Counted from the stretch's first letter, positions 34,761 through 55,064 are shown. The stretch: 64,000 nt of DNA from Escherichia coli (GCF_051903065.1 NZ_CP178438.1); one strand, 5' to 3'. Notes: a model not told the origin generated them from the sequence alone. Made by a program: numbers and translations.

Positions 34761-37700
34761 GATTTCATCAAACCAACGCGCAGTATCTGGATGATGGTTT
34801 CCACAATACGGTTAACCTGATTCATTCCGGCACCAATTTCCCGGCAGGCCGTAAACAGCAGTGGTAGCAGACTTGTCTTAACGACTTTCTCAATGTCCTG
34901 GGGGTTCAGGGAGTTTTCTGCCACCGCTCTAACGATAATGCTGTCCACTTCAAAAGCCAGCTTCGTCCACTTATCCTGCACCTGAACGTCTTTTACCACA
35001 AAAACCTCAGGTAGCTCTTTTTTAAATACACCGTAATACGCCTGAGCATGCTTGTTTACCGCCAGTGCATCCGGGATATCGCTGAGCTTACGGGCTTCAA
35101 CCTGTTCTTCAAACTCACGGAATAAGAGGTACTGCTTAAGTGGATGGTCGAACAGTTTTTCAGCCTCTTCGATTGCCATACGCAGGAGTCTGGAAAAGGC
35201 CTCCTGAGCATACGGATCATCACGCAGCTCCTGCTCAATCATCTTCGTCACACGGGTTTTAATGATGTCGGTTTCATTGCGGGTTTTATTGTTGTCCCAC
35301 TCTTCGGGCTTTTCGCTCTTACCCATTTTACCGACTTCATACACGCCATCCGGTTCACGAACCTCAACGCCGGTGACATGCTTATCCAGCAGTTTTTTCA
35401 CCTGCTCGGCGTAGTCGTCATAATTGACCTGCTCTCCACTGACCTGCATCGCCCACTGGCGCAGGCTGGACATCTGTTTTACGGTTTCTTTATAGAGGTT
35501 TCGGTCTTGTTCCGTAAAGCTCTTGTCGGTGAAGAAGGTGGCGGACTGCAGTGCCACTTTCAGGCATCCGGCAAAGGCCGTTAACGCCTCGAAGAAATCA
35601 TCACGGGTTTTCTGATGGATATCGACCATCTCTCCGTCACGTTCTTCCATTTTAGGCACCAGTACCGCACGTAACTGCTCAGTATCATTTTTGTTTTTGA
35701 CACCAGCAAATATGGCCCACAGCTGGTTATACAGATGCGGCAGGCGCTTGTATTCAGAGCTCATGGCGCTGTACAGCCCGTCAATATCTTTGATGTCGTA
35801 TCCGCCCTGAGTTCGGGAGGCGAGGTCCTGATATTTGCCGATAGTCGTGTCCAGCTCAGCCAGAATACCGCGATAATCAATCAGCAGACCGAACTTTTTT
35901 AGTGGATGCAGTCGGTTCACCCGCGCAATCGCCTGGATAAGGTTGTGGGACTTAAGCGGCTTGTCGATATACAGCACGGTATTCTTCGGCTCATCAAACC
36001 CGGTGAGCAGTTTATCAACGACTATCAGCAATTTGAGCTTCTCATCGGTATCGAAACGACTGATGATATTGCGGGTATACACAGACTCATCCTGCGTGCC
36101 GACGTTATCTTTCCACCATTTCGTCACTTCCGGCAGTTTGCTTTCATCCACCTCAGTATTCCCTTCCCGGGTATCCGGCGGGCTGATAACTACAGCTGAC
36201 TCAAACAACCCGGCTTCATCAAGATACTTTTTATATTTGATGGCGGAAATCTTGCTGTCGCAGGCAAGCTGGCCTTTCAGCCCCTCATCAATATTCTTCG
36301 AGAAGTGCGTGGCGATATCGAGTGCGATCAGACGGATGCGATCATCTGCACTATAAACCTCACCTTTACGGGCATATTTACGCTTAAGGTCGGCTTTTTG
36401 CGCTTCGCTTAACCCATCGGTAATACGATCAAACCAGGCATCTATTGCCCGATCGTTAACCTCAAGGTCGGGAATACGTTCTTCATACAGCAAAGGTGTA
36501 ACGGCTTTATCTTCTACCGCTCGCTGCATGGTATAAGCGTGGACAATCGGTCCGAATTTATTGGTGGTCTTATCTTCTTTTAGCAATGGCGTACCAGTAA
36601 ATGCTACAAAGGCGGCGTTCGGCAGTGCCAGTTTCATTCGCACATGGTTCTCACCACCCTGGCTACGGTGTCCTTCATCAATCAGAACGATGATATCGGG
36701 GCTGGTATTGACGCATTCAGGAAGTTTTGTCGCTGAATTAAATTTCTGGATTAGGGTGAAAATGATGCGTTCTTTACCGGAGCCAATCTGTTTCGCCAGC
36801 ATCTGCCCGGATGTCGCCATTGCATTGGCTTTGTCTTTTTTCCCGGCCAACTCGCCGCCGGATGCAAAGGTACTGCTGAGCTGTTCTTCAAGATCGATAC
36901 GGTCCGTCACCACCACGATACGACACCGCTTCAGGCTGTCATGAAGGATCAGCGCCTTGCTGAGGAACACCATGGTGTACGATTTGCCAGAGCCGGTGGT
37001 ATGCCAGATAACACCACCTTCCCTGCCCCCATCGGGTCTGCGGGTACTGATGCGTTCCAGCAGTCTTTTAATCCCGAACACCTGCTGATAGCGGGCAACA
37101 ATTTTTCCGGTCTTTTTATCAAACAGGGTGAAGAAGCGGGTCATCTCCAGCAGACGTTCCGGCGAAAGCAGACTGATGAGCAGCTTATCCTGCCCGCTGA
37201 CAGCCAGTTCCCCCCCGGCGATTAACTGCTGATACCAGTTGAGATCGCCAACAGGACGATGCTCAAATAACGCATCAATTTGTTCAGTCGATAAAGGATG
37301 GTTGCGCAGGGCATACATCTGCGCATCGGTAATATCCTCTTCGCGCCATGCCGCCCAGAATTTCATTGGCGTATGGCATGTACCGTAGCGCCCGTCATGA
37401 CCGTTAATCGAAAGTAATAACTGGCTGTAGACAAACAGCTGCGGGATTTCATCGTTGAACTGGTTGCGGATACTCTGGGATATCCCCTCGTCAATGGTTG
37501 GCCCTTTCTTGCCATGACCAGCCGGGCTTTTCGCTTCAATAACAGCCAGCGGGATACCATTAACAAAGCAGACAATATCTGGCCTCCGGGTTTCAACACC
37601 ACCTGACCGCAATACCGTAAATTCTTCAGTAAAATGGAACTGGTTATTTTCCGGATGTTCCCAGTCGATCAGCGCAATGGTGGGGTTGACCTTCTTGCCA

Positions 37701-38044
37701 TCGACAAACTCCGTGACGGCGATACCGTAGAGCAGATGGTTATACATCCGCTCATTGGCTTTGAGCAGCCCTTCATTCAGCGCCGGAGAACAGACCTGTG
37801 ATATCAGGTTATCCAGTGCTTTTTCCGATAACTGGCAGGTTTTGCCACCCGCCATAAAGGAACGCTTCGACAGCTCTTCACGCAGAACCGGACGCAGCAC
37901 CACCTCATCCTGTTTATAGCCCCGGTAATCCATAATCTGTTTCGGAGATAAAAACGCCCAGCCGAGGCTGGTCAGTAACGTCAGTGCCGGAATTTTGGCG
38001 CTGTATTCTTCCTGGAATTTTGGCGTGTACGTCTGGTTCATCAT
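34757..38044 (-). CDS. hsdR: type I restriction enzyme R subunit
   Basis: 1095-aa ORF MMNQTYTPKFQEEYSAKIPALTLLTSLGWAF; helicase motifs HTTGSGKSYTMVF and VLIDEGHRSQ; operon with hsdM and hsdS. Confidence 0.9.
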   Translation of the reverse strand: MMNQTYTPKFQEEYSAKIPALTLLTSLGWAFLSPKQIMDYRGYKQDEVVLRPVLREELSKRSFMAGGKTCQLSEKALDNLISQVCSPALNEGLLKANERMYNHLLYGIAVTEFVDGKKVNPTIALIDWEHPENNQFHFTEEFTVLRSGGVETRRPDIVCFVNGIPLAVIEAKSPAGHGKKGPTIDEGISQSIRNQFNDEIPQLFVYSQLLLSINGHDGRYGTCHTPMKFWAAWREEDITDAQMYALRNHPLSTEQIDALFEHRPVGDLNWYQQLIAGGELAVSGQDKLLISLLSPERLLEMTRFFTLFDKKTGKIVARYQQVFGIKRLLERISTRRPDGGREGGVIWHTTGSGKSYTMVFLSKALILHDSLKRCRIVVVTDRIDLEEQLSSTFASGGELAGKKDKANAMATSGQMLAKQIGSGKERIIFTLIQKFNSATKLPECVNTSPDIIVLIDEGHRSQGGENHVRMKLALPNAAFVAFTGTPLLKEDKTTNKFGPIVHAYTMQRAVEDKAVTPLLYEERIPDLEVNDRAIDAWFDRITDGLSEAQKADLKRKYARKGEVYSADDRIRLIALDIATHFSKNIDEGLKGQLACDSKISAIKYKKYLDEAGLFESAVVISPPDTREGNTEVDESKLPEVTKWWKDNVGTQDESVYTRNIISRFDTDEKLKLLIVVDKLLTGFDEPKNTVLYIDKPLKSHNLIQAIARVNRLHPLKKFGLLIDYRGILAELDTTIGKYQDLASRTQGGYDIKDIDGLYSAMSSEYKRLPHLYNQLWAIFAGVKNKNDTEQLRAVLVPKMEERDGEMVDIHQKTRDDFFEALTAFAGCLKVALQSATFFTDKSFTEQDRNLYKETVKQMSSLRQWAMQVSGEQVNYDDYAEQVKKLLDKHVTGVEVREPDGVYEVGKMGKSEKPEEWDNNKTRNETDIIKTRVTKMIEQELRDDPYAQEAFSRLLRMAIEEAEKLFDHPLKQYLLFREFEEQVEARKLSDIPDALAVNKHAQAYYGVFKKELPEVFVVKDVQVQDKWTKLAFEVDSIIVRAVAENSLNPQDIEKVVKTSLLPLLFTACREIGAGMNQVNRIVETIIQILRVGLMKS

Positions 38045-38093
38045 TAATCCTTTTCTTTCTGGCGCTACTCGCTACTGGTCACATGAAGATTCA

Positions 38094-38777
38094 TCAATGC
38101 AGACAGCACCTCTTAAATTTTTTACCGCTGCCACACGGACACGGGTCATTTCGCCCGGGCATGTTTTCTGCCCCCTTCACTGGAACAGGCCGGGATGATG
38201 CCTCTGACATTCTCACTGACAACCAGTACTGATAAAGTGCCAGTGCAGCAGGCTGAATAAGGGAAATACTTTTCTCAAACTGCTCTCCGGTCATTTTCTC
38301 AAGTACAGGAAAATTCTTCTCCACGCCATGAAGAGCGATCACTTCCAGAGAAGGCCGTAACTCACCGGGAAGACCAGACCAGTCATCCAGTGACTTTCCT
38401 TTCATATAACCAAAACACCACTCTTCCACAATGGTATATTTTTCCCCCTTTACCTCACGCTCATTGAAAATCGGTTCAAACTGTTCAGGGGCCTCATACA
38501 GGCAGCCAGCGATATCGTTCATATGCTGAAAACACAGCCCCACAAAACGCGTCATCTCTTTTTCGGTGGTCCAGCGAGGGTGGTAATCACCTCGCCCCCA
38601 GATAGCACTGAGCCAGGTATTAGGGGAAATCGTATTCGGGCCAGAGACAATCGCTGTCAGAAAGCCATCCAGCTCAGAGAAACAGAGCACAGAATCATCA
38701 TTGCCGTATTTCAGCAACACCTCTTCCAGCCAGTCGATTTCCCGGTCAATCAGCGGCCCGCTTTTCGTCAGTTTCAT
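38094..38777 (-). CDS. YecA-like UPF0149 / SEC-C motif protein, paralogue of chromosomal yecA, inside the hsd operon
   Basis: 227-aa ORF MKLTKSGPLIDREIDWLEEVLLKYG... aligns along its length with YecA (20434-21099), including [11 protein letters not shown] and the terminal [21 protein letters not shown]; start overlaps hsdS stop, 49 bp before hsdR. Confidence 0.85.
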   Translation of the reverse strand: MKLTKSGPLIDREIDWLEEVLLKYGNDDSVLCFSELDGFLTAIVSGPNTISPNTWLSAIWGRGDYHPRWTTEKEMTRFVGLCFQHMNDIAGCLYEAPEQFEPIFNEREVKGEKYTIVEEWCFGYMKGKSLDDWSGLPGELRPSLEVIALHGVEKNFPVLEKMTGEQFEKSISLIQPAALALYQYWLSVRMSEASSRPVPVKGAENMPGRNDPCPCGSGKKFKRCCLH

Positions 38778-40012
38778 TCGGCAACCGCCTCATCGACCTT
38801 AACACGACGTTTGCCAGTCAGTAGCTGTTGCATCAGGGCTTTTTTCTCATCTCTCAGGCAGGCGAGTTTTTTCTCCAGCGTGGAGATTTCGGCATCGGCG
38901 ACGGACAGGACGGCGGCGATTTTTTGTTGTTCTCTTATACTGGGTAAGTCTAGTTCAAACTCTTTAACCATTCCGGCGTTTAGGTTGGACTGTGTACCTT
39001 GCTGGCCTTGTAGTTTTATTTTTTCTTTTAATGATGTAAGATAGAAATATAAAAACTCATAATTTAAACAATCTTTTGGTCTAATACCCAAGATTGCCTG
39101 CGAAGATGTTAAATTTACAGCAGCAATGCTGCATTCACCTATAGAAGCATACATAGCATAAAGAACCGAGTTTTTTGGATATATTCTTGCGGATGAACTG
39201 TTCAATCCTAATTCAGTCAGATATTTTTCAGTTGTAGCAATCCACTTTCCATTAGATGTCATATCAGAAATAGATACCCATGGGATATTCCCGCCATAAT
39301 ACTCTTCAACCGTTGATTTCGGAGTACCTCCACTGTTCATATCGGCTATCGCACCCAGTTTTACTCTCTTCCACTCCCCACTAAACCTCACCCCATTCTC
39401 ATCCAGCAAGCGTTTCTTCCCGGTAAGTAATTGCTGCATCAGGGCTTTTTTCTGCTGCTGACTATTGGCGAGCAGCTTTTCCGTCACTGAAATCGCGTTA
39501 TCCCAGGTTGACAAGATTTTGGCTATTTTCTTTTGTTCCGCCAGTGGGGGGAGTAATACAGGAAAACCGCAAACATCATCACGTGTAATATTAGGGTCTT
39601 TACGACTACTTGCCGCAAATTTCTTCCATAATTTTACATTCCCGTTTAAGTAATTCAGGATATATGCTGGTTCTGCTTTATCACGATCGAGTATAAGACC
39701 GGATAATGCTTGGTTTATTGCTGCCGGTATAGTGAGAAGTCCAGTTCTTCCGATCTGGTTAAAGCCTCCATACATCGCTACTAAAACAGTACCAACAGGA
39801 AATACAGAGCAAGATGTTTCTAAAAGGGCTGTGTCAGTAATTTTCTCATCAGTTGAGATAATTTCACCGTTATTTAGGTCTAATGTCTTTACCCATGGAG
39901 TACCAGCAGTAGAAAAATAACGCTCTCCCTCAGCCCTCAGCGGAGTAGATCCAGATTTAATTTTTGCTATGTCCGATAATTTGACATGTCTCCAGCCAGG
40001 TTTGAGCTTCAT
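38774..40012 (-). CDS. hsdS: type I restriction-modification specificity subunit
   Basis: 412-aa ORF with two target-recognition halves and conserved HsdS core LLTGK(K/R)RL; overlaps hsdM stop. Confidence 0.88.
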   Translation of the reverse strand: MKLKPGWRHVKLSDIAKIKSGSTPLRAEGERYFSTAGTPWVKTLDLNNGEIISTDEKITDTALLETSCSVFPVGTVLVAMYGGFNQIGRTGLLTIPAAINQALSGLILDRDKAEPAYILNYLNGNVKLWKKFAASSRKDPNITRDDVCGFPVLLPPLAEQKKIAKILSTWDNAISVTEKLLANSQQQKKALMQQLLTGKKRLLDENGVRFSGEWKRVKLGAIADMNSGGTPKSTVEEYYGGNIPWVSISDMTSNGKWIATTEKYLTELGLNSSSARIYPKNSVLYAMYASIGECSIAAVNLTSSQAILGIRPKDCLNYEFLYFYLTSLKEKIKLQGQQGTQSNLNAGMVKEFELDLPSIREQQKIAAVLSVADAEISTLEKKLACLRDEKKALMQQLLTGKRRVKVDEAVAE

Positions 40013-41565
40013 AAGCTATCCTCTTGCATACTGAAGTTTTCTCTTTCACCATAACCCAACTCCTTCAGATAACCCGCCATCTCTGTTTCGAGTTTTGACA
40101 GTTCCACTTTCAATTGCTCACGTTCGGCACGCACAGCCAGCAAGTCAATCTCGTCTTCTTCCTCAAAGGTATCGACATAGCGCGGAATATTGAGGTTGTA
40201 ATCGTTGTCCTGAATTTCCTTCAGGCTGGCGAGATAGGCGTATTTCTCGACGTTATCGCCATCACGGTAGGTCTTGACGATTTTCTTAATGTTTTCTTCG
40301 CTAAGCTGGTTCTGGTTTTTACCTGCCTTGAATTCACGGCTGGCATCGATAAACAGCACCTTATCATCAACTTTCTGCTTTTTGAAAATCAGAATCGCAG
40401 CCGGAATCCCCGTACCGTAGAACAGTTTTTCCGGCAGACCAATTACCGCATCCAGCAAATTTTCGTCGATCAGTTTCTGGCGAATTTTACCTTCGCTGGA
40501 GCCACGGAAAAGCACACCGTGTGGCACAACTACGCCCATACGGCCAGTTCCCGGTTTCAGGGTTTCGATCATATGCGAGATAAAAGCGTAATCTCCTTTA
40601 GTCTTCGGCGGTACACCGCGACGAAAACGGCCAAACTTATCGTTCTCAGCCTCGTCATGGCCCCACTTATCCAGGCTGAACGGTGGGTTAGCGGTCACGA
40701 TATCAAACAGCATCAGGTCGCCATTTTTATCGAGCAGTTTCGGGTTACGAATGGTATCGCCCCACTCGATTTTATGGTTGTCTTCGCCGTGCAGGAACAT
40801 GTTCATTTTCGCCAGCGACCACGTGGAGCCAATCGCTTCCTGACCAAACAACGCATAATTACGGCTGTTATGTCCGGAGACAATTTTACGTCCGCACTTC
40901 ATCAATAACGAACCAGAGCCGCAGGCCGGATCGCAGATGGTATCACCCGGTTGCGGATCAAGCAGTTCAGCAATCAGGTCTGAAACTTCTGGTGGGGTAT
41001 AGAATTCCCCGGCTTTCTGCCCACCGCTGGCGGCAAAGTTTTTGATCAGATATTCGTAGGCATTACCGATAACGTCCAGCGTACCTACACGGCTTGGCTT
41101 CAGGTTGAGATCTTCACCGGCGAAGTCTTCCAGCAACTGACGCAGGATGGTGTTCTTCTGTTTTTCTTCACCCAAGCGGTCAGTGTTAAACGAAATATCC
41201 TGGAACACGCTTTTCCCGGCATCTTTCAGTTTGGTTCCGTTGGCTTCTTCGATTGCATGCAGAGCCTGATCGATACGCTCACCGTTACCCGGCTCATGGC
41301 GGCGTTCGTACAGCGCATAAAAGCTGGCACTTTTTGGCAGTACAAAACGCTCGTTGGCCATCATCGCTTCAATCAGTTCCGGCGCATCGCCATACTGTTC
41401 TTTGTATTCGTCATAGTGATCCTGCCAGACATCTGAAATGTACTTGAGGAACAGCATGGTAAGGATAAAGTCTTTATAGGTATCAGCACTGATGGTGCCA
41501 CGGAACGTATCACACGCGGCCCACAGGGCTTTGTTGATCGTGTCCTGACTGATTTTGTCGTTCAT
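40009..41565 (-). CDS. hsdM: type I restriction-modification DNA methyltransferase subunit (N6-adenine)
   Basis: 518-aa ORF MNDKISQDTINKALWAACDTFRG; motif I DPACGSGSLL; motif IV NPPF in TANPPFSLDKWG. Confidence 0.92.
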   Translation of the reverse strand: MNDKISQDTINKALWAACDTFRGTISADTYKDFILTMLFLKYISDVWQDHYDEYKEQYGDAPELIEAMMANERFVLPKSASFYALYERRHEPGNGERIDQALHAIEEANGTKLKDAGKSVFQDISFNTDRLGEEKQKNTILRQLLEDFAGEDLNLKPSRVGTLDVIGNAYEYLIKNFAASGGQKAGEFYTPPEVSDLIAELLDPQPGDTICDPACGSGSLLMKCGRKIVSGHNSRNYALFGQEAIGSTWSLAKMNMFLHGEDNHKIEWGDTIRNPKLLDKNGDLMLFDIVTANPPFSLDKWGHDEAENDKFGRFRRGVPPKTKGDYAFISHMIETLKPGTGRMGVVVPHGVLFRGSSEGKIRQKLIDENLLDAVIGLPEKLFYGTGIPAAILIFKKQKVDDKVLFIDASREFKAGKNQNQLSEENIKKIVKTYRDGDNVEKYAYLASLKEIQDNDYNLNIPRYVDTFEEEDEIDLLAVRAEREQLKVELSKLETEMAGYLKELGYGERENFSMQEDSL

Positions 41566-41868: not shown

Positions 41869-43104
41869 TTGATGCCCTTTGATAGTAATGATGACCGTCA
41901 ATGTGATTCCCCTGCTGACTGGAGGTCTCCGGATAGAATGAGTATTGCCAACTGCGCTATCGGCCCACTTTATGATGAGCAAATAAAAAAAACACTTATG
42001 TATGCTGACCATAAATTCAAGCGGCTAATGAATACACGAATGTCGTTACTCGAACATTTATCACCCCACTATGACTTATCTTCCATGTTCAGCTATGAGT
42101 TGGAGGGAAGAGTTTTTCGGATTAAATTGATCAAGCCTGAGATTAAATTATCTCGCCAGCAGTTGATCTTCTCCTCACTCTTTTTAGAGCATGATTTTCT
42201 AAAAGAATATAAAAAACACATCTCAAATACTCTACAAAAAACAATCAAACAGTGCATTAAAAAACACAAACAAAAAATCAAAATCGAGCCTTCTATTTTA
42301 GATTACATATCAGCGTCACCCCGCAATACGTCGAGTTATGTATTACATGAGATAGTTTTTGAATCTAAACATTGCGATGAAATTCGCAATATTAAAAATG
42401 ATATATTGCTTGATGAACTAACGTTGAATGGCCGGATCACTAACATTTCAAAATACATTAAAAATAGTCAAGATAAAATCGTCGAACATATAGAGTTCTG
42501 CACTCATAAATTTGTCAATATAAGTCGTAAGAACCGGCACATTTTCAACACCACCACAATATCTGGCAGAAAACCTAACATCACTGGTGTTTTACTTTGC
42601 CTTTCAGAATTGATAAGCAACCTGCATATTTACCCAACTGAAATTAATAATATAAGCAATGCCATAATATTAAGCATTGCATACTCTGTACTTCAACATC
42701 TTCAATCCGGAAGAGAAACAGAAAAAACCAAAACCTCTCCAGCACTGGATTTTATCCCCACCATCATCGCACCTCATGTTTTCTACCTGGCGAAACGCGA
42801 AAAATCCTCTCAATATAAATACATTGAAAAAGAATATCTTCTCGGCCAGTTACTTATATTTTTGATGTATAAAACAGTTTACTACTCGATTCATAGCATC
42901 AGGGTAAGCCGTAAGCATTTCTATAATGATATAAAACCAAAATTAGTGACACTAAAAAAAGAAAGCTTATTAAGCACCAATTTCATGAAAAATCGAAGAG
43001 AGATTAGTGGTGAAGTCTTTGGTGATGTTGGTAGTATTGAGGCTGATTTTCGAGAAATCAGTACACTGATTCATCGGCGGAAGGCATTATTTATTTCCTT
43101 TTAA
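41869..43104 (+). CDS. hypothetical protein (AT-rich, Lys/Ile/Asn-rich); start codon uncertain
   Basis: 411-aa ORF in a low-GC block; no recognisable motif. Confidence 0.5.
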   Translation: MMPFDSNDDRQCDSPADWRSPDRMSIANCAIGPLYDEQIKKTLMYADHKFKRLMNTRMSLLEHLSPHYDLSSMFSYELEGRVFRIKLIKPEIKLSRQQLIFSSLFLEHDFLKEYKKHISNTLQKTIKQCIKKHKQKIKIEPSILDYISASPRNTSSYVLHEIVFESKHCDEIRNIKNDILLDELTLNGRITNISKYIKNSQDKIVEHIEFCTHKFVNISRKNRHIFNTTTISGRKPNITGVLLCLSELISNLHIYPTEINNISNAIILSIAYSVLQHLQSGRETEKTKTSPALDFIPTIIAPHVFYLAKREKSSQYKYIEKEYLLGQLLIFLMYKTVYYSIHSIRVSRKHFYNDIKPKLVTLKKESLLSTNFMKNRREISGEVFGDVGSIEADFREISTLIHRRKALFISF

Positions 43105-43610
43105 CTTTAAAACGATAAAAACAAATGAGAGACTGAATAAATATCAGCCTCTCACATAGTTAATAAGTTTCAACTTTAATATCTGAGAAATCATTCTATC
43201 TGGGCCTTGTGGACATTAATCCTCCTGGCAACATACGACTCAAAGTTTCAGCCTTGTATAGCCATCATAAATAGTACAGGATTGGGTGCTGCTCGCATGT
43301 ATCATTCTGGTATTAATACTGATCATCAGGGGTAACTTGTATGTAATTTAAAAACCATCATATCTCAAATCTCACAATGCTCATATTTTAACCATAAAAA
43401 CTAACCGATTTACACCCGCCATATATTATCATAACTTATTGTATTTAAATGGCTATAAGCCTCTAACTCACTGATTACACCATTAAATTCAAGCCATATC
43501 CTTACGCAGATACAAGCTTGCCCCTGCTGCCATTCACGTTTTAGGATTACCTCGCTAACACGACATGCTACTTTTTAAATCAGTGTAATAATTCAAACGA
43601 GGATAAAATT

Positions 43611-44741
43611 ATGTTCGAGAAAATGAAAAACAATGTAACCCGTATACCGGGGAATTTAACAAAACTTAATCAATACCAAAAAGACATTGATCACCTGTCT
43701 AAACTATTTTCTGAACAGCAATTACTGGAACTAATGACGACTACCGAATCCGATCAAATATTGCAAATGAAGCCTGCTGTAGATATTCTTCATGTACTAT
43801 CTCCATCAGCATCTACTGCTAAGCATATCAATTTTTTTCAGCACGTCCCAGTGCTCGAACAATGGTTAAAAAAGGAGTGCACTGCCTTTAATTTACTGGC
43901 AGTACATTTCTATTCACAGCAATCCCGTAAAAATGTCATTCCGAAAGAAATCTGTATGCTACTGGATGCATTTATTAAAACTGAACTTTCATCTGCGGTT
44001 AATGGTAATAATAATGCCGAACTCCTTTCTTGTTTTCAAAACACGCTGGATAAAATGTGCAATACACTAACATTTATAGACCACACAGTTACGGAACAAT
44101 CAGGTCAAGTAGCAATGCTTGATTTCAGCGCAAAAATGCATGAATATACTGTTGAAATCAGGACCTTTTTGAAGTCTGAATACTGGCTAAACAAACTACC
44201 TAAGGATATTAATATTCCATCCATTGACCTATCCTGGCTTGTGTTTTGTTACTTTTGCTCTGAATATCTTTTTGTATTTATTCAAACAACGCTCAATACA
44301 ATGAAGGCAGGAAAAATCATTCGTGATAACTACCTTTATCATCCTAAAATGATTGCATTGATCATTTTATCTATGCTGCCTTATGAAGTCATTCATAACG
44401 ATGGATCACTGAGTGAGTTTAAAACGCCTTTAACCAGCCCTGATGAGTTCATAATCAAATCTATTTGCATTAAAGGTAAGCAAAACACTACAGGGCATAA
44501 AAAAGATATAGAACAATTGCTTCGTAAGACATATATCTATATTGCATTACTCTTAAACCCTGAGTGGGCACCATCTTCCAAGGAGTTGATTTCCTTTTTA
44601 TCAGGAAAGTCCACAGTGATAAGTGGTTCACTCAACTTCCAGTCAACCTCCAGTGGTCTGGGTGTTCAAACAAACAATATCACTCTTCTTAAGAATGAGG
44701 TTTACTTCGAAAAAATAGCGAACAAGATCATGAAACTGTAG
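43611..44741 (+). CDS. hypothetical protein (AT-rich)
   Basis: 376-aa ORF MFEKMKNNVTRIPGNLTKLNQYQ; same strand and composition as the preceding ORF; no recognisable motif. Confidence 0.55.
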   Translation: MFEKMKNNVTRIPGNLTKLNQYQKDIDHLSKLFSEQQLLELMTTTESDQILQMKPAVDILHVLSPSASTAKHINFFQHVPVLEQWLKKECTAFNLLAVHFYSQQSRKNVIPKEICMLLDAFIKTELSSAVNGNNNAELLSCFQNTLDKMCNTLTFIDHTVTEQSGQVAMLDFSAKMHEYTVEIRTFLKSEYWLNKLPKDINIPSIDLSWLVFCYFCSEYLFVFIQTTLNTMKAGKIIRDNYLYHPKMIALIILSMLPYEVIHNDGSLSEFKTPLTSPDEFIIKSICIKGKQNTTGHKKDIEQLLRKTYIYIALLLNPEWAPSSKELISFLSGKSTVISGSLNFQSTSSGLGVQTNNITLLKNEVYFEKIANKIMKL

Positions 44742-44884
44742 TTTCTTAATATAATGGCGACATGGAATTGTGTTGCCATTATATCCGAATCTGCGTTTTT
44801 TCACCTGATGAACTGTGAAAGCTGTAACTGGCAGACTATAACCTCACATCGTATTTTTCCAGTGTCATTTACAGGAGAAATACG

Positions 44885-46021
44885 ATGCCTATTCTGGATC
44901 TGCGTTTCAGCAACAAATCACTTCACCAACTTCTACATCCCCTCACGGGTTGTCAGGAATACCGTGATATTCACTGCCAAAACCTGCGTGCTCTGGTGTA
45001 TCCCAATCGGATCACGCTGGCCTTTCGTGCCACTATAAACAATCAGCGTATATATGAAACCCTGGGTCAGTTCCCTCAGCTCTGCGTTGAGGATGCCCGT
45101 CAGCATGTGATGAAACTGCTTGCTGATAAAAATCGTCTTGCGGTTCAGTCCCGTCGATTCACTGTGGAACAGGCCATCAATGACCTGTGGCTACCGGATT
45201 TGCAGTTGTATAAAAAGAGTCCTCAGTCAGAGTTGTCAAAACTCAACCTCTACGTTCGCCCGTTCTGGGGCAAGCGGCAACTTCGCGACATCACGGCAGG
45301 AGAACTAGAACAATATGCTGCTGGCTTACGGGAAAAATTACGTCCGTCAACAGTAAACCGTATCCTCGCAATATTGTCCAAAATATGCTCTCTGGCAGTA
45401 CGTGCTGGATGGATCACGCATTCCCCGATGTCACATGTCCGCTATCTGAAAGAAAATAACATTCGCTATCGCACACTGTCAGCGACAGAAATCCCGCGCT
45501 TTATTGACGCGGCAACAGCGCTGCAAACACCGGCAGCTGATTCTATATTGCTTGCTCTTTATACGGGGATGCGTATTGGTGAGGTATGTACCCTGAAATG
45601 GGAGTACTGGCACCCGGATATGCATCAACTCATACTGCCTGATACAAAGTCCGGACACCCTTTCACCTGCCCACTTGCACCTCCAGCCATTGCAGTTGTC
45701 CAGTGCCAGCAGGACCTGATGCTCAGCAAAACTTACATTTTTCCACAACTAACCGACAATGTCCGCCCTCTGGCATATCCGCGTGCAACCTTTGCCCGTA
45801 TTTGTCGGGATGCCAACATTGATAACCTGCGGATGCATGACCTGCGCCGTACCTTTGCCACCCGGGTACTACAGGCGACCGGGGATATTGCAATCGCTTC
45901 CCATCTGCTAAATCACCATTCACTCACGGCGACCCGTCGCTACGCTTTTCACAATGCAGCGACATCACACGCAGTGGTTTCTCAGGTCATAGAAAGTTAT
46001 GACACAAAAATGAACCTATGA
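44885..46021 (+). CDS. tyrosine-type site-specific recombinase/integrase (P4-like); true start may lie upstream
   Basis: Catalytic region LYTGMRIGEV, MHDLRRTFATR (HxxR) and LNHHSLTATRRYA (Tyr). Confidence 0.85.
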   Translation: MPILDLRFSNKSLHQLLHPLTGCQEYRDIHCQNLRALVYPNRITLAFRATINNQRIYETLGQFPQLCVEDARQHVMKLLADKNRLAVQSRRFTVEQAINDLWLPDLQLYKKSPQSELSKLNLYVRPFWGKRQLRDITAGELEQYAAGLREKLRPSTVNRILAILSKICSLAVRAGWITHSPMSHVRYLKENNIRYRTLSATEIPRFIDAATALQTPAADSILLALYTGMRIGEVCTLKWEYWHPDMHQLILPDTKSGHPFTCPLAPPAIAVVQCQQDLMLSKTYIFPQLTDNVRPLAYPRATFARICRDANIDNLRMHDLRRTFATRVLQATGDIAIASHLLNHHSLTATRRYAFHNAATSHAVVSQVIESYDTKMNL

Positions 46022-46163: not shown

Positions 46164-46364
46164 ATGTATTTAACCATTAAGCAGTTTGCAGAAAGATTTA
46201 ATCTTTCCGCATCCACGGTTGCGTCAGATATATCGCGCAACCCAGGAAAACTCCCGCCCTTCATCAGAATTGGGCGGGCTATACGATTCTCTCTTGATGA
46301 TATTGTTGAGTGGGAAAATGCACATCGTCAAAACAAACTTAAAGGTGATATAAATGGTTACTAA
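46164..46364 (+). CDS. AlpA-family HTH protein (excisionase/regulator-like)
   Basis: 66-aa ORF MYLTIKQFAERFNLSASTVASDISRNPGKLPPFIRIGRAIRFSLDDIVEWE. Confidence 0.75.
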   Translation: MYLTIKQFAERFNLSASTVASDISRNPGKLPPFIRIGRAIRFSLDDIVEWENAHRQNKLKGDINGY

Positions 46365-48058
46365 GAACACAGCAAATAATGCTAATAATGCACTGAACAT
46401 TCTTCCTGAAGCAGCAAACGGCTTTGTTGAATAAATCGAACTTTTGCTGAGTTGAAGGATCAGATCACGTATCTTCCCGACAACGCAGACCGTTCCGTGG
46501 CAAAGCAAAAGTTCAAAATCACCAACTGGCCCACCTACAATAAAGCCCTCATCAACCGTGGCTCCATAACTTTCTGGCTGGATGATGAAGCTATTCAGGC
46601 CTGGTATGAGTCAGCAACACCTTCTTCACGAGGCAGACCTCAGCGCTATTCTGACCTTGCCATCACGACTGTGCTGGTCATTAAACGCGTATTCAGGCTG
46701 ACCCTGCGCGCTGCGCAGGGCTTTATTGATTCCATTTTTTCTCTGATGAACGTTCCGCTACGCTGCCCGGATTACAGCTGTGTCAGCAGGCGGGCAAAGT
46801 CGGTTAATGTCAGTTTCAAAACGCCCACCCGGGGTGAAATCGCACACCTGGTAATTGATTCCACCGGGCTGAAGGTCTTCGGTGAAGGCGAGTGGAAAGT
46901 CAAAAAGCATGGCCAGGAACGCCGCCGTATCTGGCGTAAGCTGCATCTCGCCGTTGACAGTAAAACACATGAAATCATCTGCGCTGACCTGTCGCTGAAC
47001 AACGTTACGGACTCAGAGGCCTTCCCCGGGTTAATCCGGCAAACCCACCGGAAAATCAGGTCAGCCGCCGCCGATGGCGCTTACGATACCCGGCTATGTC
47101 ACGATGAACTGCGGCGTAAGAAAATCAGCGCGCTTATCCCTCCCCGAAAAGGTGCGGGTTACTGGCCCGGTGAATATGCAGACCGTAACCGTGCAGTGGC
47201 TAATCAGCGAATGACCGGGAGTAATGCGCGGTGGAAATGGACAACAGATTACAACCGTCGCTCGATAGCGGAAACGGCGATGTACCGGGTAAAACAGCTG
47301 TTCGGGGGTTCACTGACACTGCGTGACTACGATGGTCAGGTTGCAGAGGCTATGGCCCTGGTACGAGCGCTGAACAAAATGACGAAAGCAGGTATGCCTG
47401 AAAGCGTGCGTATTGCCTGAAAACACAACCCGCTACGGGGGAGACTTACCCGAAATCTGATTTATTCAACAAAGCCGCAGCAAACACAGCTGTAGACAAC
47501 GATGAAAAATATCTGTCCTTTGCATTAGTTCTCGCTATCACGATTATGGACAACTTAGTAAAGCTCATCGGCACAGATGGCTTCGTACTTTATACCTACA
47601 CCCTGCAGGACACGGCTACTGCTCGTGCTGTTTTTAATGAATTAGCCAGGCGTCTCAAAAATTTCAATCGTCAGGAGGAGGTCTACACCACCGATTCCCT
47701 CACCTTTCGAATGAAATACATTTACGGTGTTACCCTGTTCGAACATGATAGTAAATCTATCCTTAACCTCTTTGATAAGAAGGGTTATCCGGTATTGAGT
47801 GAATCAGGAGAACCCGGTTCTCTTGATGATATGTATCTTGACATTCAAGCCCGATTACATGGCGGCTACGCCTCAAAAAAGTTTCTTCATTTACATGAAC
47901 ATTGTCTGTTATCTGCACACGTTACCCCGTCTGTGGAAAAGACGCAACGCGGTATCCTGATTAAAGTAGGCAGGAAACTCGTTTCCTTTATCCATGTAGA
48001 TGATGAATCACACAAAACCGATATTTTCAAATCTGTAGTAAATGTTATTAAATCTTGA
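46354..48058 (+). pseudogene. small ORF interrupted by IS903 after codon 22; the 3' part persists as a 170-aa ORF (47546-48058)
   Basis: ATG at 46354 (MVTKNTANNANNALNILPEAAN) runs into the IS; removing the IS and one TSD copy restores an in-frame ORF of about 212 codons ending 48058. Confidence 0.65.
46420..47476 (+). mobile_element. IS903-like element (IS5 family, 1057 bp; transposase ORF 46452-47420) with 9-bp target-site duplication
   Basis: Terminal inverted repeats ggctttgttgaataaatcg / cgatttattcaacaaagcc; 322-aa DDE transposase ORF; TSD gcagcaaac at 46411-46419 and 47477-47485. Confidence 0.9.
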
Positions 48059-48066
48059 TTCTTTAT

Positions 48067-48094
48067 GCCGGGACACAGCTCCCGGCATTTTTTC
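48067..48094 (+). terminator. hairpin plus T-run between the interrupted ORF and the polymerase gene (terminator or attenuator)
   Basis: Stem gccggga/tcccggc followed by attttttc, 11 bp before the RBS and ATG at 48105. Confidence 0.45.
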
Positions 48095-48104
48095 GGAGTT
48101 AACT

Positions 48105-50705
48105 ATGAGCAATAATTTGCAGGACATCCTCGCTGCCGCCTCGGGGTATCAGTCCGTGACTTCAGAGCCAGCGTTCAATCGTAAAAGACCTAAAACGCTT
48201 GATGATTATCCTGTGATACCACCTGCATCAAAAAAAGTATCTGTTATTTCAAGTGACCTGACACTCCATATCGGTTTTGATACCGAATATGTTTTCAACC
48301 CTGAAACACGACAGAATGATATTCTGTCATATCAGAGTTATGTTGTCTTACCCGATAATACAGGTATATCGAACATTATCTATCCACCTGACTCACAGAA
48401 AAAATCCCGGCTGTCTTTTAAGGAATTTCTCTGTCAAACGATTACACCGCTTCTTGAAACGGGTGTGATTACAAAATGGCCCGGTATTATTAATATATAT
48501 GCGCATTTCATTCGTGCGGATATCGCCTCCTTTGCCAATTTCTGGTCAGACTACAAAATTCTTCTGAAAGGAATACGCGGTACTGTCAGCAGCTTCAAAA
48601 ATCGTTACGGTATCGATTTTGATGAACAGCAGGAACGTCGCGTAAAGACTGAACAGATAATGTTTGACAAACGAACTTCCCCTCCGCGTTGCAGTAACGT
48701 AGCTTTCATCGATACACTGCTTATCACTCCCGGGGGTATGGGTCTGGCTGAATGTGGTGAATTACTGGGTCTTCCCAAACTCACCATTCCTGCACCTTAT
48801 TCCATAACCAATATGCGTGAATATCTTCTGGGCGACAGAGCAGGGTTTGAAGCCTATGCTCTGCGGGATGCCGAGATTGCGGTTCGTTATGCTTTACAGG
48901 TTCGCAATTTTTGCGCCCGGGAGCTGATGATTGATCGTGTCCCCGCCACCATCGGGGCGATGGCAGTTTCACGGTTCACCAAAACACTTAAAGAAAACAA
49001 TATGTCTCCTGAAGTCTGCCTTGGGACACACATTAAAACCCGTGAACTCTGGCTCACGGAGAAACAGGCATTCCGGACGATTAAAAACCCCGCCAGTGTT
49101 CCTTCAAGAGAGTTGTTTGAAACGTTCCCGATCAACTGTTACCACGGCGGACGCAATGAGTGTTTTATGATGGGGGTTACACCGTCTGATCACTGGTATG
49201 ACTACGATCTGGCTGGAGCGTATACCACCGGGCTATTAGATATCCTCACACCCGATTACGGGAACATCCGCCTCAGTAAAAATCCGGACGATTACTGTGG
49301 GCATGTAATGGGATTTGCGCTTGTCACATTTCGGTTCCCGGAATCAGTTCCCTATCCCAGCCTGCCGGTTCGGACCGATCAATATGGGTTATTCTTTCCA
49401 TTAAGTGGCGAATCATGGGCAACGGCACCTGAAATCGAACTTGCTCTGTCGCTCGGGGCAGAGATGACGATCCATAATGGGATCATCGTCCCCTGGATCT
49501 GTGACACCTCCCCACATAACAGCGAATCAACATCGGTGTTTCTTCCCTTTGTTCAACAGGTCCGTGAGAACCGTAATCGCCATATTAAAGGTTCTCTGGA
49601 GGAGAAATTCTGGAAAGAAATTGGCAACTCGCTTTATGGCAAACTTGCTCAGGGCCTTCGCGCCAAAACCGCCTTTGATACTGCCCGTGGATTAAACAGA
49701 TCCCTCCCACCATCATCGGTTACTCAGCCATTCTTTGCTGCGCATGTGACGGGATTTATCCGCGCCGTTGTCGGGGAACTCATGAATGCTTTGCCTTCTG
49801 ATTCATCGGTTGTCAGCGTCACAACCGATGGTTTTTTGACAAATTGCCCACTTGACAAGATAAACATGAGCGGTCCACTGTCTTCCCGCTTCCAGTCGCT
49901 GTGCGATATTGTTGATCCGGGTTCATCAATGTTGACATGTAAGCATGAGGTCAGCCAGCTTATCGCCATGAAAACCCGGGGGCAGTTAACCTATAGAGCT
50001 ATTCAGGGAAAACCTGTTGTTCATGCCAGGGCTGGCGTCAAACCTCCTGCCGATATTCCACGCAGTGACTATAACGACTATATGGTAGATCTTTACCTTA
50101 ATCGTTTACCCGGTCAGACGTTATCCCGAAGTACGTTGATATCAACGCGTGAGATGTGGCTCTCGGAAAGCGATCTGGTATCCCGGGAACAGGATATCCG
50201 TCTTAATCTGGAATTCGATTTCAAACGCCAGCCCGTACAGCCCGCCATGAATGAAGGGCATTTACTGATGTTTTCCCGCCCGTGGGATAATATGGAAGAG
50301 GCTCTGCAGCAACGCTCTCTTTTCGACGACTGGCGGCAAACGCATACACTGAAGACCCTGGCTGACTGGGATGACTGGTGTGATTTTCTCTATTGCCGGA
50401 CGGTGTTTTCTGATATGAAACTAAAAGTCGGAAGCAAACGTAGTGATGATATTTTAGTCAGACTATTTCTCCGGGCGCTGACTCAGTGCCAATGGGGGCT
50501 GATGCTGAAAGATAAAAAAAGTTATTCCTGTAAAGAGGTTGCTGAATGGCTGACGTCAGAAGGCTATTCAGTAACGGTGACTGATGTAAAAAATGCGGTA
50601 AGAGCAAAAATACCCCAAATGAAATTTAGTTCTGTAACACCGCGAATGAAGTCACTGATGGATATCATAGCCCGTAAATATCCGACATTCTGTCTTCCAG
50701 TCTGA
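48105..50705 (+). CDS. family-B DNA polymerase with piPolB-like motifs (pipolin primer-independent PolB)
   Basis: Exo I in LHIGFDTEYVF; YALRD (Exo III-like); KTRG in AMKTRGQLTY; motif B KEIGNSLYGKLAQ; motif C SVTTDGFL; RBS ggag before ATG 48105. Confidence 0.8.
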   Translation: MSNNLQDILAAASGYQSVTSEPAFNRKRPKTLDDYPVIPPASKKVSVISSDLTLHIGFDTEYVFNPETRQNDILSYQSYVVLPDNTGISNIIYPPDSQKKSRLSFKEFLCQTITPLLETGVITKWPGIINIYAHFIRADIASFANFWSDYKILLKGIRGTVSSFKNRYGIDFDEQQERRVKTEQIMFDKRTSPPRCSNVAFIDTLLITPGGMGLAECGELLGLPKLTIPAPYSITNMREYLLGDRAGFEAYALRDAEIAVRYALQVRNFCARELMIDRVPATIGAMAVSRFTKTLKENNMSPEVCLGTHIKTRELWLTEKQAFRTIKNPASVPSRELFETFPINCYHGGRNECFMMGVTPSDHWYDYDLAGAYTTGLLDILTPDYGNIRLSKNPDDYCGHVMGFALVTFRFPESVPYPSLPVRTDQYGLFFPLSGESWATAPEIELALSLGAEMTIHNGIIVPWICDTSPHNSESTSVFLPFVQQVRENRNRHIKGSLEEKFWKEIGNSLYGKLAQGLRAKTAFDTARGLNRSLPPSSVTQPFFAAHVTGFIRAVVGELMNALPSDSSVVSVTTDGFLTNCPLDKINMSGPLSSRFQSLCDIVDPGSSMLTCKHEVSQLIAMKTRGQLTYRAIQGKPVVHARAGVKPPADIPRSDYNDYMVDLYLNRLPGQTLSRSTLISTREMWLSESDLVSREQDIRLNLEFDFKRQPVQPAMNEGHLLMFSRPWDNMEEALQQRSLFDDWRQTHTLKTLADWDDWCDFLYCRTVFSDMKLKVGSKRSDDILVRLFLRALTQCQWGLMLKDKKSYSCKEVAEWLTSEGYSVTVTDVKNAVRAKIPQMKFSSVTPRMKSLMDIIARKYPTFCLPV

Positions 50706-51459: not shown

Positions 51460-52362
51460 ATGGGTAAGCACGATAAACTTGGATATCGACTCGGATTGAT
51501 ATTAACTCGCCTGAACAATGGTGAGTCACTAGCCGTCCGGGAGTTATCTGAGGAATTTAACGTTTGCGAAAAAACTATCCGTCGCGATCTTACTCAGCGC
51601 CTGTCCTATCTTAATCTGATTCGACAAAATGGTCGCTATCGCCTGTCTGACGGTGTTCTCGGTCAACGCAGCAATGCTGATTTACGTCATTTCACGCGCA
51701 TCCTGGGTATTGAAGGGCTGTTCCCTCGCTGGGATGACAGACTACTGAGTATTTTGTTAGGTAACACGAAAAATAACCCGTTTCTGATAAAACAACGTCC
51801 ATACGAAAACTGCGGATCATTCATGTCAATTCTGAATGTATTATCCGATGCCATCCTGTCACAGAAGAAAGTAAATTTTAATTACAAAGATAAAGAGTTT
51901 CGGGCTGTTGAGCCATACAGACTGGTTAATGACAACGGATTGTGGTATCTCGCTGCCGCCCATGACAGTACATTAAAAAGCTTTGTTATCTCATCTGTCA
52001 AAGACGTTTGCATGAGTAATATCTCTTTCAGGATAATCCCCGAAATTAATGAAAAAATAGAAAAGACAGATGGTATCTGGTATAGCGAAGACCTTATCGA
52101 AGTTCTCATTTCAGTTTCCGCACATGTTGCTCCGTGGTTTACCCACCGTCATCTATTGCCAGGACAGGAAATAATTCATACTTCCCGGTCTGGCGATTTA
52201 CTGGTGATATCACGTGTAACACACACAGATCAGATAATGCCTTTAATGAAATACTGGATACCGGATGTCGAAGTAATACAACCGGCCTCAATCCGTCAAC
52301 AACTTGCTGAAGATATACAATCCGCACTGAAACGTTACACCCAGCCAAGTAACGCCCCGTAA
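51460..52362 (+). CDS. HTH plus WYL-domain transcriptional regulator (BrxR/CapW-like)
   Basis: 300-aa ORF; N-terminal [37 protein letters not shown]; WYL motif in [13 protein letters not shown]. Confidence 0.75.
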
Positions 52363-54328: not shown

Positions 54329-54629
54329 CTGTAAAACCTTCAGTTATCGTCAACGATGACATAGCCCACCTCAAAACCCACATAACTGACTGTATTCATG
54401 AACATTTATTACCGGTGTAATACTGTCGTTGGGGTAATGGATTAACCGTTATCACCCTGCTACAGGAGAATGCTCCATAGGGGGCAAAAACCACGAGGGA
54501 TCTGAGATCCCCCGTGTCTGCACTTGTTTATGCGAACAGCCAGGAAAAAGAGACATCATCTCCATGCTGTGATGCACGCCACATGCAGTAGATTACAAAG
54601 CCGCCCGCTTTCTTCCTGTTCATAACGGG

Positions 54630-55064
54630 TCAACAACTTTCCACAGTTACCGTTACCCGGTAAATCCCCATAGAGAGATACTCCATAAAATTACGCTCCC
54701 ACAGGGACCAGAGTTCATTCCTCTCTGCTGCCAGTGAAATATCCCCAATCAGATAATGGAATACATAATTCCCCGACCAGCAAAAATCAATTTCTTTTTC
54801 CAGCTCAGGGTAGACACGCCCCATATAACTAAAATCTGTGACATAATCAAAATACCATTCATTATTCTTACGGATAAACCGTATTTCAACGGGATGAAAG
54901 CCCCCGGATTCTGCACTGTAGTCCGGATCACGGAAATTAATAACCACTGCCTCAGTTATTTTTTGTAAAACCTGATTTGCCAGAAGAGTAGTAATATGCT
55001 GCTGAAATTCTTTAGTAACAGGCAGAGTTAATCCTGCCTGTTTTAAGGCATATTGGGTTTGCAT
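54630..55064 (-). CDS. hypothetical protein (144 aa)
   Basis: ORF MQTQYALKQAGLTLPVTKEFQQHITTLLANQ; co-oriented with the integrase-proximal small genes. Confidence 0.5.
   Translation of the reverse strand: MQTQYALKQAGLTLPVTKEFQQHITTLLANQVLQKITEAVVINFRDPDYSAESGGFHPVEIRFIRKNNEWYFDYVTDFSYMGRVYPELEKEIDFCWSGNYVFHYLIGDISLAAERNELWSLWERNFMEYLSMGIYRVTVTVESC

Follow-up and report, generated by a model that had tools for sequence, protein, structure and literature searches.

A position-fixed, AT-rich gene cassette at the cargo/core seam of an Escherichia coli pipolin

Results

Two AT-rich orphan genes between a restriction-modification operon and an integrase

The DNA analysed here is a stretch of 64,000 nt (hereafter the window) from an Escherichia coli chromosome (GCF_051903065.1, NZ_CP178438.1), in a region 100% identical to strain 23CRST027. 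It contains a pipolin, a self-replicating integrative element located at a tRNA-Leu gene and encoding a primer-independent family-B DNA polymerase (piPolB). Two orphan genes of this element, called ORF1 and ORF2 (for open reading frame), are the subject of this report. A first-pass annotation, made from the sequence alone, had described two co-oriented frames of 411 and 376 aa between the hsd operon and an integrase gene. Both were found on the plus strand as described (Table 1), and their place, which was correct, could be defined more sharply: the ORF1/ORF2 cassette sits exactly at the seam between the defence cargo of the pipolin and its core, composed of the internal recombinase IntP2, an excisionase and piPolB.

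The composition of the block, initially reported as AT-rich, biased and unlike that of its flanks, was measured. GC content was 0.33-0.37 over positions 42000-44500 and about 0.49-0.52 on either side (0.45-0.52 in hsdM, 0.49-0.52 in the integrase). Feature by feature, it was 0.344 for ORF1, 0.348 for the spacer between the two genes and 0.358 for ORF2, versus 0.489 for hsdM and 0.499 for the recombinase. The proteins are correspondingly biased, ORF1 towards Ile (12.1%), Leu (10.8%), Lys (10.1%) and Ser (9.8%), and ORF2 towards Leu (12.5%), Lys (8.8%), Ile and Ser (8.5% each) and Asn (6.6%).

The mechanical call of ORF1 is most likely too long at its 5' end. The first residue of all diverged ORF1 homologues is the Met encoded at 41938 (MSI...), and the 22-23 codons 5' of it lie in DNA of normal GC content that is collinear, in relatives without ORF1, with the non-coding leader preceding ORF2. 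The true start would therefore be at 41938, giving a protein of 388 aa.

ORF1 and ORF2 are intact protein-coding genes, and purifying selection acts on both proteins. In DNA of 35% GC, about 7% of random codons are stops, so that the chance of a 376-codon open frame is about 1e-12 per frame by our own arithmetic. Homologues are full-length, 372-382 aa for diverged ORF2 (members down to 35% identity) and 397-399 aa for diverged ORF1, and the ORF2 family alignment contains dozens of invariant residues. The dN/dS ratio, computed within E. coli and between genera, was 0.09-0.30 for ORF1 and 0.14-0.45 for ORF2, comparable to that of the recombinase. Therefore, the two genes are not chance frames.

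A minority of the E. coli copies are frameshifted or truncated (L012 and L013; L001 to L041 are labels of the retrieved loci, L001 being that of the window), as might be expected if the frames were debris of a degraded larger gene or fortuitous openings. This explanation was refuted by the homologue alignments, and we give it practically no weight: homologues have the same full length, no longer relative was found, dN/dS (0.09-0.45) is well below 1, and a chance frame of this size has the very low probability given above. The refuting outcome named in the first-pass annotation, homologues from which the frames would appear as fragments of a larger gene, was thus not obtained.

ORF2 keeps its slot whatever the cargo

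In all pipolin lineages examined, and irrespective of the cargo, the place upstream of the internal recombinase is taken by ORF2. Its homologues (36-43% identical) lie some 140-295 bp upstream of, and co-oriented with, a series formed by the recombinase, the excisionase, a gene of about 200 aa and piPolB. This arrangement was seen in Serratia, Enterobacter hormaechei, Buttiauxella, metagenome contigs and two further genomes, which carry dynamin or patatin cargo. The types of cargo found upstream of ORF2 were a type I restriction-modification (R-M) system, a type III-like methylase/helicase with UvrD, three dynamin-like GTPases, and a patatin/YjcZ/dynamin set. ORF2 is solitary, without ORF1, in most lineages; within pipolins, ORF1 was found only with ORF2 of the E. 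coli type, in E. coli, Edwardsiella, Salmonella, Phytobacter, Citrobacter and Intestinirhabdus.

Among 5426 complete E. coli genomes, ORF1 was covered over at least 80% of its length in 248 and ORF2 in 233, while the recombinase was found in 266 and piPolB in 281. ORF1 and ORF2 are present in about 83-88% of the 281 piPolB-bearing genomes.

A separate observation concerns an island devoid of piPolB (L006, 5450-10980). It carries a 45% identical ORF1 homologue alone, followed by a tyrosine recombinase 27% identical to that of the pipolin and then by a DUF927 primase-type gene. DUF2787-type genes lie on one side of this group and an arm-type integrase on the other; the layout recalls a pipolin, except for the replication gene.

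The R-M cargo has its own history. HsdM is 97-99% identical across Enterobacter, Buttiauxella, Citrobacter, Franconibacter, Atlantibacter and a Klebsiella IncFIB plasmid (L016-L032, L032 being the plasmid pKqu-1), which indicates a very recent spread of this cargo. In those hsdM-sharing loci that carry another type of ORF2, the latter is about 36% identical. Two remnants were found in which part of the element is lost. Atlantibacter sp. RC6 (L029, 3224-3600) has kept the hsd cargo and a 24-nt box described below, and has lost the rest to near tRNA-Leu. In E. coli strain I4 (L041, NZ_CP195978.1, 6186-6470), a deletion of 12.4 kb begins shortly ahead of the start of ORF1 and stops some 110 nt short of a second copy of the box; the hsd cargo and the IntSXT end have been kept. 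As hsd cargo is kept without ORF2 in these remnants, ORF2 is not co-selected with the defence cargo.

The 24-nt box, with an HsdM 99% identical to that of E. coli, was also present on a contig of 2.7 kb assigned to a metagenome-assembled genome of Candidatus Nanosynbacter (Saccharibacteria) (L018). This is most likely a mis-binned enterobacterial contig.

These observations bear on the initial proposal that the two genes form a pair of abortive-infection (Abi) or similar defence genes associated with hsd. The setting beside defence genes was correct, the pipolin island carrying Hhe, two DUF262 genes and a type I R-M system (PMC11551731). An exchangeable two-component Abi system would suit such a neighbourhood of R-M, GmrSD-like and Hhe genes, the AT-rich, orphan nature of both genes, and the constant company of an E. 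coli-type ORF2 for ORF1 in six genera. However, the cassette stays beside the internal recombinase when the upstream cargo changes, and hsd cargo 97-99% identical spreads without it. Nor do the two genes behave as an obligate pair, since ORF2 is solitary in most lineages, the ORF1 homologue of L006 is solitary as well, and a 506-bp spacer containing a minus-strand terminator lies between them. PADLOC gave no match, no copy was found among the phage records searched and the only plasmid copy is a fragment. We therefore consider an ordinary Abi cargo unlikely, and less probable than either a conflict-related binding function or a control of the element, both weighed below.

The AT-rich block evolves independently of cargo and core

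Identity between ORF2 homologues was about 35-43% for pipolins whose recombinase and piPolB are 77-94% identical. Between Serratia and E. hormaechei or Buttiauxella, the recombinase is 92% identical, piPolB 90-94% and the excisionase 84-97%, versus 40% for ORF2. For E. coli and Serratia, the corresponding values are 79%, 72%, 53% and 43%, and for E. coli and Edwardsiella they are 69%, 67%, 81% and 68%. The ORF2 tree disagrees with the core tree: the core of E. coli is nearer to that of Serratia (79% for the integrase), whereas its ORF2 is nearer to that of Edwardsiella (68%, versus 43% for Serratia). The sequences of E. coli and Edwardsiella cease to be nearly identical at the start of ORF1. 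This discordance between core and ORF2, together with a cargo that spreads separately, indicates that the AT-rich block is a third module, with its own evolution and recombination breakpoints at both edges, discordant with both cargo and core.

The low GC content had first been described as a foreign composition. As a mark of recent acquisition it does not hold. ORF2 homologues have a GC content of 0.33-0.38 next to integrases of 0.48-0.51 in every lineage, also in those with saturated synonymous sites, and GC is low at all three codon positions of the block (0.355 at third positions, versus 0.488 in int). As AT-richness persists in every lineage, it is an inherited trait of the family and not the mark of a recent arrival.

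Such persistence might also be expected if the 2.9-kb block acted as DNA, for instance as a silencer or insulator of the type nucleated by H-NS, between the cargo and the int-piPolB region, the proteins being secondary. Low GC at every codon position, its maintenance despite saturated synonymous divergence, and the lack of a detectable sigma-70-like promoter are in line with this idea. It accounts poorly for the purifying selection on the proteins (dN/dS 0.09-0.45), for lengths of 372-382 aa and dozens of invariant residues kept at 35% identity, and for frames that are intact in most genomes. A role at the DNA level is thus quite improbable.

Conserved DNA landmarks border the cassette

The left edge of the cassette is marked by a 24-nt box, some 130 nt 5' of the conserved start of ORF1. 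In every locus this box stands ahead of the first AT-rich ORF, and it hardly varies between flanks that diverge. A scan of 100,044 species (one genome each) returned 16 stretches containing it, almost all of them Enterobacterales pipolins. A second copy, on the same strand, was present 9.8-12.6 kb downstream in the window (L001), in L002-L005, L010 and L011, with more cases in L025, L033, L035 and L036. Positions of the two copies are, for example, 9912/19708 in L002, 9888/19692 in L004, 9889/19725 in L005, 9847/20598 in L010 and 560/10367 in L036. The two boxes bracket the module going from ORF1/ORF2 through IntP2, the excisionase and piPolB to the WYL regulator. The box may serve as an operator, as a site of recombination or as a 5' element of an RNA.

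Its possible role as the att site of a nested IntP2 element was examined with a chimeric 'empty-site' query. The query picked out one E. coli genome, that of strain I4, in which the module is gone, both boxes survive, and the deletion ends elsewhere. The break in the Atlantibacter remnant lies 33 nt past the box. In L040, a 109-nt duplication starting from the box flanks a segment composed of IS1, an integrase and cargo, which would fit recombination between elements at this place without being a proof of site-specific recombination. Read from these junctions, the region around the box is a recombination hotspot.

The right edge is marked by the box GATGAACTGTGAAA, present in seven of the seven aligned loci (with single-base variants in two), and its 11-nt core in 23 of the 40 retrieved loci. 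A second copy lies just downstream of int in L007, L039 and L040. The E. coli sequence is of the Edwardsiella/Salmonella type to the left of this box, and of the Serratia/Enterobacter type to its right.

Between this box and the integrase, the leader is predicted to form a strong hairpin (-20.7 kcal/mol, z -7.1), whose consensus in seven loci has 15 pairs, two of them with compensatory changes. Another hairpin directly follows ORF2. Equivalents with other sequences were read from the alignment in Edwardsiella, Salmonella (the clearest), E. hormaechei and Buttiauxella, which suggests that ORF2 and the integrase belong to separate transcription units.

A third hairpin, at the beginning of the spacer, folds with -24.5 kcal/mol (z -6.1) on the minus strand, versus -12.5 kcal/mol on the plus strand. 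Together with a promoter-like site on the minus strand (43455-43428), it suggests an unannotated minus-strand transcript in the spacer. Hairpins after both stop codons and the 506-bp spacer suggest that ORF1 and ORF2 are transcribed separately.

The spacer itself has no ORF longer than 42 aa and did not match Rfam; a role as origin or iteron region was considered and rejected, as no repeats were found. It occurs only in this context, in one copy per genome in nearly every case. It was aligned over at least 80% of its length in 151 of 229 genomes, and among the matches listed, the weaker ones cover only its positions 197-506. Its first 196 nt or so (43105-43300) are polymorphic, and replaced in many E. 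coli pipolins.

Small families of predicted helical proteins without known relatives

The ORF1 family comprised 13 clusters in a word-indexed search of 5.8 billion proteins, all from Enterobacterales, and a repeat with a profile added none. For ORF2, the same search gave 22 clusters, and an exhaustive search of 1.84 billion representatives with a hidden Markov model gave 32, of which six (its own included) match over about the full 375 aa or so. ORF2 is a tiny family confined to Enterobacterales.

The absence of recognisable motifs, stated in the first-pass annotation, was borne out by library, profile and structure searches. No relevant match to either protein was obtained in Pfam (with single sequences and family-wide), NCBIfam, PHROGs or PDB sequence profiles, and no fold match in PDB or BFVD structures. 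A look-up of the literature by protein accession returned no publication on either protein. A likeness to Abi proteins was not supported: besides the lack of PADLOC matches, a lead to AbiJ_NTD4 in the ORF1 family (15.6 bits, for a cutoff of 34) was rejected as a chance match because only one of seven family members gave it. The Rx4-6H motif of HEPN/AbiJ proteins is not among the invariant columns of the ORF1 or ORF2 alignments; R11 is the only invariant Arg of ORF2, and no Arg is followed by a conserved His 4-6 residues on. Paralogy of ORF1 and ORF2 was not supported either (BLASTP E 0.54, hhalign probability 0.15%, ORF1 not recovered by the ORF2 profile search).

The AlphaFold2 (AF2) model of ORF1 was unusable (pLDDT 41.9). 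That of ORF2 (pLDDT 66.9) was all helical, and no fold neighbour was found for it. Maxima of Kyte-Doolittle hydropathy over 19 residues were 1.23 for ORF1 and 1.51 for ORF2, the usual threshold being 1.6, so that no transmembrane segment was detected in either protein, and the idea of membrane proteins or membrane-acting Abi effectors was not supported. ORF1 is strongly basic (59 Lys and Arg versus 39 Asp and Glu); in ORF2, the conserved N-terminus is acidic rather than basic. From these models and scans we infer that both proteins would be soluble and helical, without catalytic, transmembrane or DNA-binding signature.

ORF1 and ORF2 resemble each other only in the order of predicted secondary structures, N-terminal helices followed by a beta-hairpin in the AF2 models, and in their conservation profile. 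In both families the ends are conserved, with a peak of 0.76-0.77 near residues 276-325, and a stretch around residues 126-200 is variable, pairwise identity being 0.22-0.35 for ORF2 and 0.34-0.45 for ORF1. Invariant residues include D25, D27, H244, K290, N292, T294 and G295 in ORF2, and D24, H25, G210, R211 and N214 in ORF1.

An addiction module of the toxin-antitoxin kind, stabilising the pipolin, may come to mind for two adjacent genes on a mobile element, one of which encodes a strongly basic protein. Yet proteins of about 380 aa are far above the typical size of such components, the genes are 506 bp apart without translational coupling, either of them occurs alone, and library scans found no toxin or antitoxin domain. 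This possibility appears very unlikely.

The main alternative is that ORF2, with ORF1 where present, senses or regulates the life cycle of the pipolin, holding IntP2, the excisionase and piPolB off or switching them on upon a signal, with the flanking boxes as part of the circuit. It would explain a place beside the integrase-excisionase-replicase block that is strictly conserved in all pipolin lineages examined, and the same position of the ORF1 homologue of L006 beside a 27%-identical recombinase and a DUF927 gene. Near-invariant boxes on both sides of the cassette, and a conserved hairpin that sequesters the ribosome-binding site of the integrase, for which translational control is predicted, also point in this direction, as do the remnants, which lose ORF2 with the core and do not keep it with the cargo. 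The N-terminal helices and beta-hairpin predicted in both proteins may be added. However, scans of 24 members of the ORF1 and ORF2 families detected neither a helix-turn-helix (HTH) nor any other DNA-binding domain, the conserved N-terminus of ORF2 is acidic, and the genes are co-oriented with int, not divergent. Moreover, an ORF2 that is 40% identical where the integrase, excisionase and piPolB are 84-97% identical is a poor fit to a conserved partner of the core, and about 17% of E. coli pipolins persist without it. Control of the element is thus possible, but doubtful.

Architecture of the pipolin

The element was identified as a pipolin from its polymerase motif, its tRNA-Leu end with att repeats and its published architecture. 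The polymerase, annotated by PGAP as 'DNA polymerase type-B family protein' and weakly matched by Pfam DNA_pol_B_2 (E 0.009), holds in its translation a KH-X8-KTRG motif (CKHEVSQLIAMKTRGQ), which, instead of KxY, is the signature of primer-independent PolB (PMC5695915). Enterobacterales pipolins are bimodular, with a core near the tRNA and an exchangeable defence cargo at the distal end, and their internal IntP2 recombinase and excisionase adjoin piPolB; the core has been listed as piPolB, IntSXT, IntP2, DUF2787, WYL and orphans around IntSXT (PMC11551731). The architecture of E. coli pipolins seen in the window is published (PMC7385651, PMC11551731).

From left to right, the window contains Hhe, two DUF262 genes (GmrSD-like) and insertion sequence (IS) fragments, then the R-M operon, a minus-strand block encoding an M48 peptidase, HsdR, a YecA-like protein, HsdS and HsdM. 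Hhe, the two DUF262 genes and the type I R-M system constitute the defence cargo. ORF1 and ORF2 follow, then the tyrosine recombinase, the HTH_17 excisionase, an IS5 insertion, the family-B DNA polymerase, the WYL regulator, DUF726, IS1, DUF2787, two small orphan genes and the arm-domain recombinase. Past the latter lie tRNA-Leu, tRNA-Cys, tRNA-Gly, pgsA and uvrC.

Table 1. Positions, in the window, of the cassette, its DNA landmarks and other features of the pipolin.
Feature	Position	Strand	Remarks
R-M operon	34005-41565	-	
hsdM	40009-41565	-	Left neighbour of ORF1
24-nt box GGTGTAAAACTGCCGTTGGGGTAA	41784-41807	+	Two direct GGKGTAA half-sites 17 nt apart; left cassette edge
ORF1, mechanical call	41869-43104	+	411 aa from TTG; PGAP start at 41872
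ORF1	41938-43104	+	388 aa from conserved ATG (most likely start); orphan, basic, predicted all-alpha
Spacer ORF1/ORF2	43105-43610		506 bp, AT-rich, non-coding
Hairpin with T-run	43125-43155	-	Reads as intrinsic terminator just after ORF1 stop
ORF2	43611-44741	+	376 aa; good Shine-Dalgarno (GAGGA); orphan, predicted all-alpha
Terminator-like hairpin	44749-44784	+	Directly 3' of ORF2 stop; inverted repeat I7; -19.2 kcal/mol, z -4.4
Box GATGAACTGTGAAA	44807-44820	+	About 65 nt upstream of integrase ATG; right cassette edge
Integrase leader hairpin	44847-44887	+	Pairs with integrase Shine-Dalgarno and AUG (predicted); inverted repeat I3
Internal tyrosine recombinase, IntP2-type	44885-46021	+	phrog_1 integrase, E 4.7e-52 (PMC11551731)
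Excisionase (HTH_17)	46164-46364		
IS5-family element	46452-47420		
170-aa ORF	47546-48058		
piPolB	48042-50705		KH-X8-KTRG motif
WYL regulator	51460-52362		HTH_DeoR, WYL and WCX domains
24-nt box, second copy	54414-54437	+	2 mismatches; between IS1 and DUF2787 stop
DUF2787 gene	54630-55064		
IntSXT-type recombinase	56437-57666		Arm-DNA-bind_3 and Phage_integrase domains
tRNA-Leu(taa)	58699-58785		Integration site
att repeats (3 copies)	21218-21400, 23532-23712, 58624-58804		

Several other features of these elements were recorded. The IS5-family element is inserted in a conserved gene of about 212 aa that overlaps the excisionase gene and precedes piPolB. The 170-aa ORF is the C-terminal remnant of this split gene, which is intact in enterotoxigenic E. 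coli H10407 (L014, 8419-9057). The cassette of this strain occupies positions 2116073-2118942 of NC_017633.1. The two distal att copies are 2.3 kb apart, and about 0.8 kb located by tRNA-Leu is duplicated distally (22940-23662 versus 58033-58754); three att copies and this duplication suggest tandem or repeated integration. In the R-M operon, a YecA-like gene (UPF0149 and SEC-C) is embedded between hsdS and hsdR, and an M48/YgjP-like peptidase gene stands after hsdR. Finally, the pipolin of L039 carries, directly after its piPolB module, a CRISPR array with at least 38 repeats at a 60-nt spacing, and type I-F Csy genes (16667-19000 and 19190-21146).

Discussion

A fixed slot held by one family, divergence concentrated in the centre of the proteins, a discordant phylogeny, signs of separate expression, and the absence of enzymatic or DNA-binding signature are best accounted for, in our opinion, if ORF1 and ORF2 are binding-type, conflict-related proteins of the pipolin. 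We hold this tentatively, at a probability of about 0.4. Under this proposal, the proteins would act by binding and not by catalysis. Recognition of a changing foreign partner, of phage origin or from a rival mobile element, would fall to their variable centre (residues 126-200 or so), and their conserved ends would couple it to a conserved output. The output might be protection of the host or the element, through abortive infection or exclusion, or else the triggering of pipolin excision and replication.

Several points weigh against such a function. PADLOC-DB v2 (5027 models) gave no family at E<=1 for either protein, all sequence libraries were without a match, close relatives excepted, and 50,697 phage records contained no homologue. 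Upstream of ORF1 and of ORF2, no sequence resembling a sigma-70 promoter was detected. The Atlantibacter and I4 remnants have kept hsd cargo without ORF2, and the Klebsiella plasmid has cargo with an ORF2 fragment, the sole plasmid copy of the cassette genes. A single family constant in its slot does not resemble the usual defence hotspot either, where many unrelated systems are housed. Finally, central variability could come from relaxed constraint on a linker and not from an arms race.

The conflict-related and the element-control proposals may be combined in a more specific scheme, which we put forward as a speculation and hold as a whole to be rather unlikely. The ORF2 family might represent a new fold and a pipolin-specific hypervariable sensor, ORF1 being an analogous supplement. 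Detection of an invader, phage or rival mobile element, would be linked to a conserved pipolin response, either abortive or exclusion defence or activation of IntP2, excisionase and piPolB. The GGKGTAA-N10-GGKGTAA boxes, the GATGAACTGTGAAA box and the integrase leader hairpin would belong to the same circuit, possibly read by the WYL regulator.

In its known parts, the element agrees with published pipolins of Gammaproteobacteria (PMC5695915, PMC7385651, PMC11551731): it shares the tRNA-Leu gene with att repeats, an IntSXT-type recombinase, DUF2787 and orphans at the tRNA end, WYL, piPolB, the IntP2-type recombinase followed by the excisionase, and a distal cargo. Several 'hypothetical protein' groups without HHpred match are present in 64-93% of E. 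coli pipolins (PMC7385651, Table S3), and ORF1 and ORF2 are probably among them. Supplementary cluster tables aside, these three papers draw no particular attention to the gene preceding IntP2, nor do they describe the fixed position of ORF2 combined with its hyperdivergence, the persistent AT-richness or the edge boxes. What appears to be new is a third, position-fixed and hyperdivergent module with edge boxes, and ORF2 as a hallmark of Enterobacterales pipolins.

Pipolins are widespread carriers of defence genes, and the questions at stake are how they are induced, exchange their cargo and persist. A gene fixed at the seam, yet fast-diverging and swapped between lineages, offers a handle on all three. 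ORF2 is a candidate for a new defence or exclusion family and, equally possibly, for the missing sensor of pipolin mobilisation, while the conserved boxes at the edges point to a site of cargo exchange or regulation. Even if the genes were inert, the map of pipolins is refined to three modules: cargo, junction cassette and core.

Three known systems invite comparison. The lactococcal AbiD/F and AbiJ proteins, helical or of the HEPN type, are like ORF1 and ORF2 in being AT-rich, about 350-400 aa long, helical, narrowly distributed and carried by mobile elements. They differ in that ORF1 and ORF2 have no significant match to them and no conserved Rx4-6H motif.

The Stl-type master repressors of phage-inducible chromosomal islands, such as the Staphylococcus aureus pathogenicity islands, have an N-terminal HTH, are transcribed divergently from the genes they control, and diverge fast between otherwise similar islands. 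The likeness, as an analogy only, is that of a strongly diverging gene beside the integrase and the excision/replication block. In contrast, no HTH could be detected in ORF1 or ORF2, and both genes run in the same direction as int.

In P2-like phages and P4-like satellites, the slot beside a P2-type integrase gene is delimited by conserved sequence and occupied by AT-rich accessory genes, of unknown or defence function, that recombination swaps between otherwise similar elements. These integrase-adjacent hotspots hold many unrelated systems, whereas the pipolin slot held only the ORF2 family, sometimes with ORF1, in the lineages sampled. What the two have in common is AT-rich genes next to a P2-type integrase, exchanged between similar elements.

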